NCBI RefSeq assembly: GCF_003334305.1
Contig: NZ_QOWS01000020.1
DNA from: Escherichia coli
GTDB lineage: Bacteria; Pseudomonadota; Gammaproteobacteria; Enterobacterales; Enterobacteriaceae
Length of the DNA stretch: 64,000 nt
Direction: 5' to 3' (one strand)
Position numbers and translations under genes: made by a program. Positions 3,078-35,975 of the stretch are shown piece by piece. Every line of letters starts with the position of its first letter. Position 1 is the stretch's first letter. The notes under the pieces were generated by a model. It did no database searches. It had not been told where the DNA came from and saw only the letters and a program-made list of their open reading frames with translations.

Positions 3078-4532
3078 ATGTATATCGGGATAGATCTTGG
3101 CACCTCGGGCGTAAAAGTTATTTTGCTCAACGAGCAGGGTGAGGTGGTTGCTTCGCAAACGGAAAAGCTGACCGTTTCGCGCCCGCATCCACTCTGGTCG
3201 GAACAAGACCCGGAACAGTGGTGGCAGGCAACTGATCGCGCAATGAAAGCTCTGGGCGATCAGCATTCTCTGCAGGACGTTAAAGCATTGGGTATTGCCG
3301 GCCAGATGCATGGAGCAACCTTACTGGATGCTCAACAACGGGTATTGCGCCCTGCCATTTTGTGGAACGACGGGCGCTGTGCGCAAGAGTGCACTTTGCT
3401 GGAAGCGAGAGTTCCGCAATCACGAGTGATTACCGGCAACCTGATGATGCCCGGATTTACTGCGCCTAAATTGCTATGGGTTCAGCGGCATGAGCCGGAG
3501 ATATTCCGTCAAATCGACAAAGTATTATTACCGAAAGATTACTTGCGTCTGCGTATGACGGGGGAGTTTGCCAGCGATATGTCTGACGCAGCTGGCACCA
3601 TGTGGCTGGATGTCGCAAAGCGTGACTGGAGTGACGTCATGCTGCAGGCTTGCGACTTATCTCGTGACCAGATGCCCGCATTATATGAAGGCAGCGAAAT
3701 TACTGGTGCTTTGTTACCTGAAGTTGCGAAAGCGTGGGGTATGGCGACGGTGCCAGTTGTCGCAGGCGGTGGCGACAATGCAGCTGGTGCAGTTGGTGTG
3801 GGAATGGTTGATGCTAATCAGGCAATGTTATCGCTGGGGACGTCGGGGGTCTATTTTGCTGTCAGCGAAGGGTTCTTAAGCAAGCCAGAAAGCGCTGTAC
3901 ACAGCTTTTGCCATGCGCTACCGCAGCGTTGGCATTTAATGTCTGTAATGCTGAGTGCAGCATCGTGTCTGGATTGGGTCGCGAAATTAACCGGCCTGTG
4001 CAATGTCCCAGCTTTAATCGCTGCAGCTCAACAGGCTGATGAAAGTGCCGAGCCAGTTTGGTTTCTGCCTTATCTTTCCGGCGAGCGTACACCACACAAT
4101 AATCCCCAGGCGAAGGGGGTTTTCTTTGGTTTGACTCATCAACATGGCCCCAATGAACTGGCGCGAGCAGTGCTGGAAGGCGTGGGTTATGCGCTGGCAG
4201 ATGGCATGGATGTCGTGCATGCCTGCGGCATTAAACCGCAAAGTGTTACGTTGATTGGTGGCGGGGCGCGTAGTGAGTACTGGCGTCAGATGCTGGCGGA
4301 TATCAGCGGTCAGCAGCTCGATTACCGTACGGGGGGGGATGTGGGGCCAGCACTGGGCGCAGCAAGGCTGGCGCAGATTGCGGCGAATCCAGAGAAATCG
4401 CTCATTGAGTTGTTGCCGCAGCTACCGTTAGAACAGTCGCATCTACCAGATGCGCAGCGTTATGCCGCTTATCAGCCACGACGTGAAACGTTCCGTCGCC
4501 TCTATCAGCAACTTCTGCCATTAATGGCGTAA
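3078..4532 (+). CDS. xylB: xylulokinase (484 aa)
   Basis: MYIGIDLGTSGVKVILL... FGGY-family sugar kinase immediately downstream of xylA. Confidence 0.95.
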   Translation: MYIGIDLGTSGVKVILLNEQGEVVASQTEKLTVSRPHPLWSEQDPEQWWQATDRAMKALGDQHSLQDVKALGIAGQMHGATLLDAQQRVLRPAILWNDGRCAQECTLLEARVPQSRVITGNLMMPGFTAPKLLWVQRHEPEIFRQIDKVLLPKDYLRLRMTGEFASDMSDAAGTMWLDVAKRDWSDVMLQACDLSRDQMPALYEGSEITGALLPEVAKAWGMATVPVVAGGGDNAAGAVGVGMVDANQAMLSLGTSGVYFAVSEGFLSKPESAVHSFCHALPQRWHLMSVMLSAASCLDWVAKLTGLCNVPALIAAAQQADESAEPVWFLPYLSGERTPHNNPQAKGVFFGLTHQHGPNELARAVLEGVGYALADGMDVVHACGIKPQSVTLIGGGARSEYWRQMLADISGQQLDYRTGGDVGPALGAARLAQIAANPEKSLIELLPQLPLEQSHLPDAQRYAAYQPRRETFRRLYQQLLPLMA

Positions 4533-18113: not shown

Positions 18114-18812
18114 ATGATCATAAAAAAAAGCGGTGGTCGCTGGCAGCTAAGCCTGCTGGCGAGCGTGGTAATCAGTGCCTTTTTTCTCAACACAGCTTAC
18201 GCCTGGCAACAAGAATATATCGTTGATACGCAACCCGGACATTCCACAGAGCGTTACACCTGGGATAGTGATCATCAACCTGATTACAACGATATTTTGT
18301 CGCAACGTATTCAAAGTAGCCAAAGGGCGCTGGGACTGGAAGTCAATCTGGCGGAAGAAACTCCTGTGGATGTGACCAGCAGTATGAGTATGGGCTGGAA
18401 TTTTCCTTTATATGAACAGGTTACAACCGGCCCGGTCGCGGCATTACATTACGATGGCACAACCACCTCGATGTATAACGAGTTTGGCGACAGTACTACC
18501 ACGCTGACCGATCCGTTATGGCATGCCAGCGTGAGTAGCTTAGGCTGGCGTGTTGACTCCCGGCTTGGCGATCTCCGACCCTGGGCGCAAATCAGCTATA
18601 ACCAGCAATTTGGCGAGAATATCTGGAAGGCGCAATCAGGCCTGAGCCGGATGACGGCGACAAACCAGAACGGCAACTGGCTGGATGTCACCGTAGGCGC
18701 TGATATGTTGCTCAATCAAAATATTGCCGCCTATGCCGCGCTAACTCAGGCAGAAAATACCACTAATAATAGCGACTATCTGTATACGATGGGGGTTAGT
18801 GCCAGATTTTAA
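18114..18812 (+). CDS. yhjY: uncharacterised protein YhjY (232 aa)
   Basis: MIIKKSGGRWQLSLLASVVISAFFLNTAYA signal peptide; called from synteny and length. Confidence 0.8.
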   Translation: MIIKKSGGRWQLSLLASVVISAFFLNTAYAWQQEYIVDTQPGHSTERYTWDSDHQPDYNDILSQRIQSSQRALGLEVNLAEETPVDVTSSMSMGWNFPLYEQVTTGPVAALHYDGTTTSMYNEFGDSTTTLTDPLWHASVSSLGWRVDSRLGDLRPWAQISYNQQFGENIWKAQSGLSRMTATNQNGNWLDVTVGADMLLNQNIAAYAALTQAENTTNNSDYLYTMGVSARF

Positions 18813-18926
18813 CGTAACAGTCACAATTGAAACCATTGAATAACAACAGTTGTGGCGATAGTGGGTGCTAACTTACCAAATAATAAATTTGGTGAATAAT
18901 TGTCGCGTCATTCATTCCTGAACTAA

Positions 18927-18957
18927 GGCATTTCATTCCGTTCTGATGGCATTTCAT
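18927..18957 (+). promoter_or_regulatory. YpdB-type direct-repeat operator in the yhjX promoter
   Basis: GGCATTTCAT (18927-18936), 11-bp spacer, GGCATTTCAT (18948-18957), ~85 bp upstream of the yhjX ATG. Confidence 0.7.
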
Positions 18958-19040
18958 GCCGTTTTTCCCCAGGCATAAAGTGCACTTCGTTATGGTTGTC
19001 GGCAGAGATTTTTCCTTTTTATTACTGCAGGAATACTGCC

Positions 19041-20249
19041 ATGACACCTTCAAATTATCAGCGTACCCGCTGGCTGACACTCATCGGTACAATCATTACC
19101 CAGTTTGCGCTGGGGTCGGTTTATACCTGGAGCCTGTTTAATGGCGCGCTTTCCGCCAAGCTGGATGCGCCGGTAAGCCAGGTCGCTTTCTCTTTCGGCT
19201 TGTTAAGTCTGGGGCTGGCAATTTCGTCTTCTGTTGCGGGCAAATTGCAGGAACGTTTTGGCGTTAAACGCGTCACCATGGCTTCCGGCATTTTGCTGGG
19301 ATTAGGCTTCTTCCTGACCGCGCATTCCAACAACCTGATGATGCTGTGGTTAAGCGCCGGTGTGCTGGTCGGTCTGGCGGATGGCGCGGGTTACCTGCTG
19401 ACGCTCTCTAACTGCGTGAAGTGGTTCCCGGAGCGTAAAGGTCTGATCTCCGCGTTCGCTATCGGTTCTTATGGTCTGGGTAGCCTGGGTTTCAAATTTA
19501 TCGACACGCAGCTGCTCGAAACGGTGGGTTTGGAAAAAACATTTGTGATTTGGGGAGCGATTGCGCTGGTGATGATTGTTTTCGGCGCAACGTTAATGAA
19601 AGACGCACCAAAACAGGAAGTGAAAACCAGCAATGGTGTGGTGGAGAAAGATTACACGCTGGCAGAGTCGATGCGTAAACCGCAGTACTGGATGTTAGCG
19701 GTAATGTTCCTGACTGCCTGCATGAGCGGCCTGTACGTGATTGGGGTAGCGAAAGATATCGCCCAAAGTCTGGCACACCTTGATGTGGTTTCCGCAGCCA
19801 ATGCAGTCACTGTTATTTCCATCGCTAACCTTTCAGGTCGTCTGGTGCTGGGCATTCTGTCTGACAAAATTGCCCGTATCCGTGTTATCACCATTGGTCA
19901 GGTGATTTCGCTGGTGGGTATGGCGGCCCTGCTGTTTGCACCATTAAATGCAGTGACGTTCTTTGCAGCGATTGCCTGCGTGGCATTTAACTTTGGCGGC
20001 ACTATTACCGTCTTTCCATCACTGGTCAGTGAGTTCTTCGGCCTCAATAACCTGGCGAAAAACTACGGTGTGATTTACCTCGGTTTCGGTATCGGTAGCA
20101 TTTTTGGTTCGATTATCGCCTCACTGTTTGGCGGTTTCTATGTGACCTTCTACGTGATTTTCGCCCTGCTGATTCTGTCATTGGCGCTTTCTACGACGAT
20201 TCGTCAGCCAGAGCAGAAAATGTTGCGTGAGGCGCATGGCTCCCTTTAA
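19041..20249 (+). CDS. yhjX: MFS transporter YhjX (402 aa)
   Basis: MTPSNYQRTRWLTLIGTIITQFALGSVYTWSLFNG...; 12-TM oxalate/formate antiporter-like MFS protein. Confidence 0.9.
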   Translation: MTPSNYQRTRWLTLIGTIITQFALGSVYTWSLFNGALSAKLDAPVSQVAFSFGLLSLGLAISSSVAGKLQERFGVKRVTMASGILLGLGFFLTAHSNNLMMLWLSAGVLVGLADGAGYLLTLSNCVKWFPERKGLISAFAIGSYGLGSLGFKFIDTQLLETVGLEKTFVIWGAIALVMIVFGATLMKDAPKQEVKTSNGVVEKDYTLAESMRKPQYWMLAVMFLTACMSGLYVIGVAKDIAQSLAHLDVVSAANAVTVISIANLSGRLVLGILSDKIARIRVITIGQVISLVGMAALLFAPLNAVTFFAAIACVAFNFGGTITVFPSLVSEFFGLNNLAKNYGVIYLGFGIGSIFGSIIASLFGGFYVTFYVIFALLILSLALSTTIRQPEQKMLREAHGSL

Positions 20250-30637: not shown

Positions 30638-30745
30638 ATGACGCTCGCAGAGCTGGGCATGGCCTTCTGGCATGATTTAGCGGCTCCGGTCATTGCTGGC
30701 ATTCTTGCCAGTATGATCGTGAACTGGCTGAACAAGCGGAAGTAA
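30638..30745 (+). CDS. ldrD: Ldr small toxic peptide (35 aa), copy 1
   Basis: ATG at 30638; MTLAELGMAFWHDLAAPVIAGILASMIVNWLNKRK, Ldr family; not in the supplied ORF track (below its length cutoff). Confidence 0.85.
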   Translation: MTLAELGMAFWHDLAAPVIAGILASMIVNWLNKRK

Positions 30746-31120: not shown

Positions 31121-31228
31121 ATGACGCTCGCAGAGCTGGGCATGGCCTTCTGGCATGATTTAGCGGCTCCGGTCATTGCTGGCATTCTTGCCAGTATGAT
31201 CGTGAACTGGCTGAACAAGCGGAAGTAA
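31121..31228 (+). CDS. Ldr small toxic peptide (35 aa), copy 2
   Basis: ATG at 31121; identical predicted peptide to copy 1. Confidence 0.85.
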   Translation: MTLAELGMAFWHDLAAPVIAGILASMIVNWLNKRK

Positions 31229-33182: not shown

Positions 33183-34750
33183 GATGAGCGCTCCACAGCA
33201 TCATCTAACAGTCGCATGGGTTCTGGTATTCGTCGCCAGTGGCGACCATCGTGCTCGGCATTGATGACCGGTTTAGAACTTTGCGTTAAAGGCAGCGGCA
33301 TGCCCCATTGTTCTGGGGCAAGCAAGCGCATCTGCACCAGCTCGGCACTGATTTGATCATCTTCAAACCAGACCATACGGTTTGAGAAAATGTCGCCAGT
33401 AGGCAATGGGAAAATATGATTCAACGCGGTATCCAGATCGTTAATCCGACAGAATGAGAGAAACAGCACCAGCCGATTACCGCCAATGGTCATGATATCG
33501 CCGGTACGGTTAGGGCGACACAGCGTCAGGGCTTGTTCAACGCGGATACCCGGTACCGGACGTAGGGCAACCAGAACGCCTTTACCGTGGGCAGGCAAGA
33601 GAGGGTTATTCATCATGTTGTTGACGGCATTACAGAACACATCCCACTTCTGGAAACCACGCAGTTTGAGCGGCTGGGTCATTGACAGCAAGGTAGTGAT
33701 ATCTTCCGGCACATAGCGACTAAACTTCTGCCCTTGCACGCTTTCGATCATCGTCAGACAACGGGAGAGTGGCGCATTCCACGGAATAACCATATTTGCA
33801 CCGCAGGCCAATAACAAACGTTCATCGGTGGCGCGCAGGCTAGCGGTATTTTCCCGCACGAGGATTTTCATCGCACTACCGCGCTGGCGACGCAGGGTAT
33901 GAATGCTGCGGGCCAGTGGCTCGATTTGCGCATTTTGCTGTAAAGAAAAGACCACCGTCGCCGCCTGAGCGGTACGGGCTTCATTGAACAGGACTTCGTT
34001 ATTGTTGAACAGTTGCCAGTGTTCCGATAGCGGCGGCGCACCTTCCAGTACAGCAACATTACTCAGAATGCGTTTTTCGTCGCTGCGTGGTTGGATCTCC
34101 GCCTCTTCGCTTTGAACTAATGTCCAGATACCATTTTGTTGCTGAACGCTAAGCTGCTGACGGGCGCTGACCCCTTTTTCGTTGCACCAGAAGGCAATAT
34201 CCAGCAAATGTTGGTCACCCTGAAAACGCAAACTGGCAAGACCAAAAAGTGAACGGTATTCCTCAAGCAACAATGAAAATTGTTTATCGTTATTATTTCC
34301 GGGATTAATTACCAAAAGCGAACAATGGTTTAACCTGCTCCATTTATTCATTTTATCCAACCATGAGCGAAGCCGCTCGGCAGGAATGTTTTGCCATGCG
34401 TTATTTGCCCAAACAAGAATAAAAAGGTAATTATGGGGATCAATAGAACACTGCAAATCACGGGTCAAATAGTATAGACCTTTTTCATGATTTAGCATTG
34501 AAAATAATTTTATTTTTTCCGGCCCTTGAGAATCATCTAATTGAAAGATTTTCGCCGGATCGCTGTCCATGCTAATGACCGCGACGTGTGCGGTTTCAGC
34601 CTGGGATGCAATTGTTTGATTCGCCAGACTGATAGCATCTTCATGGCGATCGACGTTAAACCACCAGACGCCGCCTGCTGGCATATGTCGCAGCTCATCC
34701 CATAATGATGAGATACCGATAGAGAATACAGGGTCCACAATGTCCCTCAT
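33179..34750 (-). CDS. bcsE: cellulose biosynthesis protein BcsE (523 aa, c-di-GMP-binding GIL-domain protein)
   Basis: [32 protein letters not shown]...; first gene of bcsEFG, divergent from bcsR. Confidence 0.93.
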
Positions 34751-35022
34751 GTCACCATTTTGTCTGATTATCAGTTTACTAGCGAAAGCTAAGAAATAAA
34801 CCTACCATTGAAATTAAAACTTATCAGATTTAGCATGTGAATCAATTTAGAAGGTCACAAGACGTGTGATTTTAGTCTTTTCGTTTTTAACTTTTTCTGT
34901 TGCGTAACGGAAAGTCAAAAAGTGAGCAAATTCCCGTCTCGCCGTAAACAATAAACCGGCGAAATGCTCACGGTTAGAATTGTCTCATGAACGGTACGGT
35001 TATTTCATAGGGATCAAGCAAA

Positions 35023-35211
35023 ATGAATAACAATGAACCAGATACTCTGCCTGATCCCGCGATAGGCTATATCTTCCAGAATGATATTGTGGCGTTAAAG
35101 CAGGCATTTTCACTGCCTGATATTGATTATGCCGATATTTCCCAACGCGAACAGTTGGCCGCGGCATTAAAACGCTGGCCGTTGCTGGCAGAGTTTGCGC
35201 AACAAAAGTAG
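35023..35211 (+). CDS. bcsR: cellulose biosynthesis protein BcsR (62 aa)
   Basis: MNNNEPDTLPDPAIGYIFQNDIVALKQAFSLPDIDYADISQREQLAAALKRWPLLAEFAQQK. Confidence 0.9.
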   Translation: MNNNEPDTLPDPAIGYIFQNDIVALKQAFSLPDIDYADISQREQLAAALKRWPLLAEFAQQK

Positions 35212-35222
35212 GGGATTGGTGA

Positions 35223-35975
35223 ATGGCCGTACTGGGATTGCAGGGGGTGCGGGGAGGCGTGGGGACAACAACCATCACCGCCGCATTAGCCTGGTCATTA
35301 CAAATGTTGGGAGAAAATGTTCTGGTGGTCGATGCCTGCCCGGACAACTTGTTGCGCCTGTCATTTAATGTTGATTTTACCCACCGTCAGGGCTGGGCCA
35401 GAGCGATGCTGGATGGCCAGGACTGGCGTGACGCTGGGTTGCGCTACACCTCGCAGCTCGATTTGCTGCCTTTTGGTCAGTTATCCATTGAAGAACAAGA
35501 AAATCCACAGCACTGGCAAACCCGGCTGAGCGATATTTGCTCCGGCTTACAGCAACTAAAAGCCAGCGGGCGTTACCAGTGGATTTTAATCGACTTACCG
35601 CGTGATGCCTCGCAGATAACCCACCAGCTGCTGAGTTTGTGCGATCACTCGCTGGCAATCGTCAATGTGGATGCCAACTGCCATATCCGACTGCATCAGC
35701 AAGCGCTGCCGGATGGCGCACATATTTTGATTAATGACTTCCGTATTGGCAGTCAGGTTCAGGACGATATTTACCAGCTTTGGTTGCAAAGCCAGCGCCG
35801 ATTACTGCCGATGCTCATTCATCGTGATGAAGCGATGGCTGAATGCCTGGCGGCTAAGCAACCAGTAGGTGAATATCGCAGTGATGCGCTGGCGGCTGAA
35901 GAGATACTGACGCTGGCGAACTGGTGCCTGTTGAACTACTCCGGGCTGAAAACGCCAGTCGGGAGTGCATCATGA
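35223..35975 (+). CDS. bcsQ: cellulose biosynthesis protein BcsQ (250 aa, ParA/MinD-like ATPase), uninterrupted
   Basis: MAVLGLQGVRGGVGTTTITAALAWSLQ...; codon 6 is TTG (Leu); the frame is open for the full length. Confidence 0.92.
   Translation: MAVLGLQGVRGGVGTTTITAALAWSLQMLGENVLVVDACPDNLLRLSFNVDFTHRQGWARAMLDGQDWRDAGLRYTSQLDLLPFGQLSIEEQENPQHWQTRLSDICSGLQQLKASGRYQWILIDLPRDASQITHQLLSLCDHSLAIVNVDANCHIRLHQQALPDGAHILINDFRIGSQVQDDIYQLWLQSQRRLLPMLIHRDEAMAECLAAKQPVGEYRSDALAAEEILTLANWCLLNYSGLKTPVGSAS

Follow-up and report, generated by a model that had tools for sequence, protein, structure and literature searches.

Re-identification of the YpdB (PyrR) site upstream of Escherichia coli yhjX, with a conserved, degenerate third repeat

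DNA sites for regulators of the LytTR class in general comprise repeats of 9 to 11 nt that lie 11 to 13 nt apart (PMC4847170). The AgrA boxes of Staphylococcus aureus P2/P3 and the sites of other LytTR proteins (ComE, PlnC/D, and VirR) have these dimensions, are located upstream of a weak core promoter, and are bound by LytTR domains that bend DNA (PMC4847170). In these respects they resemble the locus described here, from which they differ in having no common consensus and in controlling quorum sensing, toxins, or bacteriocins. AgrA-type regulators usually dimerize on activation, whereas both forms of the E. coli LytTR-type regulator YpdB are monomeric in solution (PMC4847170).

Within E. coli, the site to compare is that of BtsR (YehT) at the btsT/yjiY promoter. 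BtsR and YpdB belong to paralogous LytS/LytTR systems that sense pyruvate, and both sites are direct repeats serving a single transporter target. However, the BtsR site has a different repeat sequence and a different spacer length, and PyjiY has been used as a nonbinding control for YpdB. The BtsS/BtsR system has a high affinity for pyruvate, in the range below 5 μM, compared with 600 μM or more for YpdA/YpdB. Kraxenberger et al. 2012 reportedly gave the BtsR repeats as ACC[G/A]CT[C/T]A with a 13-bp spacer.

YpdA and YpdB have since been renamed PyrS and PyrR. The LytS-type kinase YpdA/PyrS serves as the sensor of extracellular pyruvate; in uropathogenic E. coli (UPEC), sensing also runs via BtsS (PMC9765748). 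The sole direct target reported for YpdB is yhjX (PMC4847170), whose product is a major facilitator superfamily (MFS) transporter implicated in pyruvate transport. Induction of yhjX has a threshold of ≥600 μM external pyruvate (from the same group as PMC4847170), and an independent group found yhjX mRNA to be increased 678-fold with 3 mM pyruvate (PMC7660256).

Binding of YpdB to the yhjX promoter has been dissected by SPR using a 57-bp DNA fragment and a His-tagged, phosphomimetic protein, YpdB-D53E, the phosphomimetic form being the better binder (PMC4847170). The fragment carries two copies of a 10-mer, named site A (upstream) and site B (downstream). With the wild-type fragment, binding of YpdB-D53E resolved into a 1.2 nM component with slow on and off rates and a 21 nM component with fast ones. 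Transversion of site A abolished all binding, and transversion of site B left a single event with a KD of 23 nM. Site B itself showed fast on and off rates, with a KD of about 21 nM, and required an occupied site A. An activated YpdB monomer occupies the distal site A first, followed by cooperative, transient binding at the proximal site B (PMC4847170). The authors proposed sequential “AB-BA” loading and clearance, with B as the interface for RNA polymerase, and nucleotides flanking the sites were found to influence expression (PMC4847170). The fragment is said to cover the DNase I footprint of YpdB on PyhjX (PMC4847170); the footprint and in vivo promoter mutagenesis are those of Fried et al. 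2013 (PMC3562098), taken here from the papers that cite them.

We analyzed 64 kb of E. coli chromosome (here called the window). GGCATTTCAT occurs only twice in the window, both times on the plus strand, at 18927-18936 and 18948-18957, which bears out the original prediction of two perfect 10-mers separated by exactly 11 bp. The spacer is TCCGTTCTGAT, and the sequence around the repeats reads ...CGCGTCATTCATTCCTGAACTAAGGCATTTCATTCCGTTCTGATGGCATTTCATGCCG.... Both copies fall within the 228 nt separating yhjY from yhjX, a stretch that extends from an open reading frame (ORF) end at 18812 to the yhjX ATG at 19041, and the 10-mer of site B ends 83 nt before that ATG. A 501-base query spanning this site matched 5,423 of 5,426 complete E. 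coli genomes. One of these, strain H15, was a 100% match, has flanking genes annotated as yhjY and yhjX, and is collinear with the window over its full length at ~99.97% identity. The downstream protein matched TIGR00890 (the oxalate/formate antiport family of MFS transporters) with a score of 476 bits and bears the RefSeq name yhjX.

We compared the locus with the published YpdB site of the MG1655 yhjX promoter (Fried, Behr and Jung 2013, J Bacteriol 195:807; PMC4847170). After removal of its GGGG clamps, the SPR oligonucleotide listed as “[BTN] yhjX YpdB bs sense,” which represents the MG1655 PyhjX fragment, is identical to positions 18905 to 18961 (PMC4847170). All 57 bases, the 10-mers, the spacer, and the regulated gene are the same. 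The locus therefore has each of the sequence features of a YpdB box: the 10-mer repeat, the 11-nt spacer, the position in the yhjX promoter, and the sequence that was bound experimentally. The YpdB box of the yhjX promoter has already been published, and this is the same element rather than merely a similar one. Assignment of the repeats to YpdB, and of yhjX to the pyruvate-sensing YpdA/YpdB system, thus agrees with the literature, with the additions that the system is now PyrS/PyrR and that the pyruvate sensed is extracellular. Judging from the sequence match, the published binding and induction data, and the conservation described below, we conclude that the element is almost certainly the YpdB (PyrR) activator-binding site of the E. 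coli yhjX promoter. Features of the locus are listed in Table 1.

Table 1. Positions of features at the yhjX promoter in the window
Feature	Coordinates	Strand	Basis
PyhjX SPR fragment as published, described as the DNase I-protected region	18905..18961	+	Base-for-base match, PMC4847170
Copy C: CGTCATTCATTCC, degenerate third repeat, 21 nt upstream of A	18906..18918	+	21.6 bits, alignment
Site A: GGCATTTCAT (18927-18936) plus conserved 3′ flank TCC; published high-affinity YpdB site	18927..18939	+	Sequence, PMC4847170, 24.5 bits
Spacer TCCGTTCTGAT, 11 nt; length invariant, sequence conserved only in its first three bases (TCC)	18937..18947	+	Ortholog comparison
Site B: GGCATTTCAT (18948-18957) plus conserved 3′ flank GCC; low affinity, A dependent, proximal to the core promoter	18948..18960	+	PMC4847170, 22.1 bits
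(G/T)TTTT tract directly 3′ of site B	18961..18965	+	T at offsets 14 to 17 in 72 to 74 of 74 sequences
TATGGT, probable -10 hexamer	18991..18996	+	Deduced from conserved TAnnnT
GCAG-GAATA-CTGC, potential 4-bp hairpin holding the Shine-Dalgarno AGGA, immediately 5′ of the yhjX ATG	19027..19039	+	GCAGGA..ACTGCC conserved across genera
yhjX coding sequence, 402 amino acids, MFS transporter of the oxalate/formate antiporter family; regulated gene	19041..20249	+	RefSeq and TIGR00890

We next asked how the repeat pair compares with chance expectation. Perfect 10-mer direct-repeat pairs with a spacer of 0 to 30 nt numbered 8 (at 6 loci) in the window, compared with 2.85 ± 2.2 (maximum, 11) in dinucleotide shuffles. 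For spacers of 9 to 13 nt, there were 3 pairs versus 0.4 ± 0.8 in shuffles. The number of 10-mer repeat pairs expected in the 228-nt yhjY-yhjX intergenic region is ~0.007. A scan of the 64-kb window for the bipartite pattern, allowing up to 3 mismatches, returned this locus only, in two overlapping registers versus 0.11 expected; the second register was an early sign of a third copy. By repeat statistics alone, a perfect 10-mer direct repeat in the window is not exceptional. With about six loci carrying such short-spacer repeats and about three in shuffles, the pair might be a chance occurrence without function. However, the spacing is invariant, the element is conserved in some 20 genera, and YpdB binds it directly (PMC4847170). 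Because of this conservation and the published binding data we judged the repeat to be real, and the probability that it arose by chance to be vanishingly small.

The position of the repeats relative to the core promoter bears on whether they serve activation or repression. TATGGT is the probable -10 hexamer judging from its conservation: all 74 distinct sequences have a TAnnnT at a distance of 42 or 43 nt from the first base of site B, and 30 nt separate TATGGT from the end of the 13-nt form of site B. No -35-like hexamer is present 17 bp upstream of TATGGT, where the sequence is CCCAGG, and a scan with the sigma-70 consensus gave no full -35/-10 pair at TATGGT. A conserved -10 that lacks a -35 fits an activator-dependent promoter. 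Two other candidates were not adopted as the main promoter assignment. The sole weak sigma-70 pair, TTACCA-16-AATAAT (18873-18900), lies upstream of the repeats and scored no better than shuffles; it was not taken as a promoter because the stretch is unconserved. With CATAAA (18974-18979) as the -10, the -35 would coincide with site B; this hexamer was passed over as the main candidate because Enterobacter, Huaxiibacter, and Intestinirhabdus lack it, whereas TAnnnT is universal. Our literature search found no mapped transcription start for yhjX; if transcription starts near 19001-19004, the centers of B, A, and C would be near -49, -70, and -91. The (G/T)TTTT tract that follows site B is possibly a bending element or a promoter-upstream contact.

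The original prediction referred to the element as an operator. The site itself stands, but the term is loose, because the repeats act in activation from upstream of the core promoter and not in repression. Taken literally, the word would mean that bound protein blocks RNA polymerase and that pyruvate relieves the block. Repression can be exerted through direct repeats close to a promoter; beyond this, such a reading draws on the word “operator” only. It is opposed by the geometry, in which 30 nt lie between the last repeat and the conserved -10 downstream and a consensus -35 is lacking, and by the K-12 RefSeq product name of PyrR, “DNA-binding transcriptional activator PyrR.” Furthermore, without btsS and ypdB the yhjX promoter is inactive and not derepressed (PMC9765748), and it is the phosphomimetic form of YpdB that binds better (PMC4847170). 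We consider a repressor operator extremely unlikely. As an activator site, the arrangement would work as follows. The repeat starts are 21 bp apart, about two helical turns, which would place both proteins on the same face of the DNA; an occupied site B would then recruit RNA polymerase to a promoter that has no usable -35, switching yhjX on.

A regulator other than YpdB could also act at these repeats, with binding of YpdB being incidental; the candidates are the paralogous LytTR protein BtsR and the AraC-type protein YpdC, which is encoded beside ypdB. In the uropathogenic strain UTI89, yhjX is induced through the noncognate pair BtsS-YpdB, and induction in UPEC requires both BtsS and YpdB (PMC9765748). 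However, this cross talk is at the level of the kinase, and the DNA-binding partner is still YpdB (PMC9765748). Moreover, PyjiY, the BtsR target, served as nonbinding reference DNA for YpdB (PMC4847170), indicating that the BtsR and YpdB motifs are distinct. Action of a different regulator is thus very unlikely, and we retain YpdB as the protein that binds the repeats.

The regulator genes are not in the window, as the original prediction had stated: tblastn with PyrS and PyrR gave a best E value of 1.4, and the collinear RefSeq annotation includes neither. In K-12, pyrS and pyrR are b2380 and b2381, at 2.50 Mb, and ypdB DNA is present in 5,423 of 5,426 complete E. coli genomes, so that the genome from which the window derives very likely carries it as well. 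With tblastn, we found pyrS/pyrR adjoining yhjX in none of the yhjX loci fetched; hence, these loci offer no guilt-by-association evidence.

To compare the element across species, we ran a protein-guided scan in which each species was represented by one genome, which yielded 80 yhjX loci from Escherichia, Citrobacter, Enterobacter, Klebsiella, Kluyvera, Buttiauxella, Kosakonia, Lelliottia, Cedecea, Atlantibacter, and other genera. The best bipartite match upstream of the yhjX start had an 11-nt spacer in all 80 species, with 0 to 4 mismatches over 20 positions, and the sequence of the spacer varied while its length stayed at 11 nt. In several genera, the best match had moved 21 nt upstream, exposing a third copy. 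Alignment of the 200 nt upstream of yhjX revealed three near-invariant blocks amid unconserved DNA, at 18906-18918 (CGTCATTCATTCC), 18927-18939 (GGCATTTCATTCC), and 18948-18960 (GGCATTTCATGCC), here termed C, A, and B. In an ungapped comparison of 77 distinct orthologous promoters, the 13-mers of C, A, and B carried 21.6, 24.5, and 22.1 bits of information, respectively; control 13-mers located 21 and 42 nt further upstream carried 1.4 and 2.9 bits. The 21-nt register was strict in 81 of 81 sequences, with 19 to 21 of 21 core positions matching.

Accordingly, what is conserved is a 13-nt repeat unit, (G/T)GCATTTCAT(T/G)CC. Because either G or T is accepted at position 1, what looks like a “perfect 10-mer” amounts to a 9-mer core with flanking sequence. 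At position 11, copies C and A have T and copy B has G, a distinction that is conserved too. The third degenerate copy that had been noticed just upstream (CATTCATTCC, 18909-18918) is conserved as well; in register with A and B it occupies 18906-18918 and so extends beyond the 10 bases originally quoted. The published model of PyhjX names two sites, whereas the comparative data point to a 13-nt unit and a third conserved copy in phase with the others. As read from sequence comparison, these are the sole addition to the published site, and they are a small refinement. Three equally conserved in-phase copies fall outside the usual description of LytTR sites. In the accessible literature, we found no mention of a third site; its sequence appears there only in the oligonucleotide table of PMC4847170, and the 2013 primary paper possibly covered C as a “flanking” block.

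Within E. coli, the 61-bp region was present in 5,396 of 5,426 genomes, with 3,581 identical and 1,815 at 95 to 99% identity. Two of the variant genomes were examined, and each departed from the window at just two bases, C to A at 18906 and G to T at 18927, in both cases the first position of a copy (C and A, respectively). In a further strain, E. coli DX6 (NZ_CP126345.1), an IS1 element (positions 3257-4030 of the fetched locus) is inserted inside site B, at about position 18955 of the window, with a 9-bp target duplication, TGGCATTTC. As a result, ~0.8 kb now lies between C, A, and a truncated B on one side and a rebuilt B with the core promoter on the other. Given that B needs A, this arrangement predicts the loss of pyruvate induction of yhjX in DX6.

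We also scanned metagenomes for the tripartite core, which returned at least 120 stretches, a sample. Among the matches listed, the tripartite array was found upstream of distant yhjX homologs (69 to 82% identity), at least one of which is nonsyntenic, with genes for an AraC-type regulator and an EamA-type transporter, not yhjY, upstream. Site A still read GGCATTTCATTCC in the distant homologs listed, and B had drifted to TTCCGTTCATGCC, making it more degenerate than C. An A-like copy (of the GCATTTCAT type) beside anything except a yhjX homolog was not found among the matches listed. Most of the listed matches that lacked a yhjX homolog were unrelated 21-nt tandem repeats, and one listed look-alike had no bacterial-type ORFs nearby.

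One possible role for C would be that of a third YpdB contact, so that up to three protomers could line up on one face of the DNA, extending the two-site model. C would then help to load or stabilize the protein at A, which would explain the ~20-fold gap in affinity between two identical 10-mers. In favor of this, C is conserved like A and B, in a 21-nt register that is never altered; it has a TTCATTCC core and a TCC flank in common with A; it lies within the fragment that is said to match the DNase I-protected nucleotides; and it is kept in the distant homologs among the metagenome matches listed. On the other hand, SPR resolved just two components on a fragment that contains C (PMC4847170), and the site A mutant, in which C and B were intact, showed zero binding (PMC4847170), so that C has no autonomous affinity. 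An ungapped comparison of C with the 10-mer also gives just 6 matches in 10 positions, and the conservation of C could reflect another factor or a requirement for DNA shape. Weighing these points, we place a third YpdB contact at slightly below an even chance.

A more specific form of this proposal is an array of three 13-nt sites, C-A-B, at 21-bp intervals, in which A nucleates binding and the weaker flanking copies fill cooperatively. The functional unit would then be the 13-nt repeat in three in-phase copies, with A as the consensus anchor and C and B as its weaker neighbors. We put this array forward tentatively, as somewhat more likely wrong than right. If true, it would revise the published “AB-BA” model and account for the ~20-fold difference in affinity. 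C may be a third YpdB contact that aids loading of A, a site for another factor, or a DNA shape element.

Several other features of the yhjY-yhjX intergenic region came to light. A conserved block, GATAGT-N5-CTAAC (18857-18872), lies ~35 nt upstream of copy C and forms an imperfect palindrome (TAG-N6/7-CTA). It is kept in most of the ~20 genera, and the DNA on either side and the distance to C vary. We could assign no known motif or Rfam family to this block, and an Rfam search of the whole intergenic region returned nothing credible (best E value, 0.78). Between this block and copy C is a perfect 7-bp inverted repeat, ACCAAAT-N5-ATTTGGT (18875-18893). Outside E. coli the repeat is imperfect, with degraded versions in E. 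albertii and E. whittamii, and it is therefore unlikely to be a conserved site. Between site B and the probable -10, GCATAAAGTGC (18973-18983) is a near-palindrome; the equivalent is GCATAAAATGC or GCATGAAATGC in many genera and is missing in Enterobacter and Lelliottia. This element could be a lineage-specific site for a second regulator or an alternative -10 (CATAAA). Behr et al. 2014 are said to have described a posttranscriptional action of CsrA on yhjX, and the potential hairpin that precedes the yhjX start codon would be a candidate CsrA site.

Elsewhere in the window, 1,291 bp (34267-35557) are missing from the otherwise 99.97%-identical strain H15, whose annotation has truncated bcsQ and bcsE. 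The window thus appears to carry an intact bcsQ-bcsR-bcsE junction of the cellulose locus. An ORF for an Ldr-type type I toxin is present in two tandem copies (30638-30742 and 31121-31225), each 35 amino acids long and 97% identical to LdrD. H15 has three Ldr copies at the same place, indicating that the copy number varies between close relatives.

The YpdB site of the yhjX promoter has been characterized experimentally to textbook level, and identifying it again adds nothing new on E. coli. It serves as a positive control, in which reading of the raw sequence recovered a real transcription factor site together with the correct regulator. The 13-nt unit, the 21-nt register, the T/G difference at position 11, and the third copy may be of modest use for work on LytTR regulators, and the role of the third copy is relevant to the way in which monomeric LytTR regulators come together on DNA.
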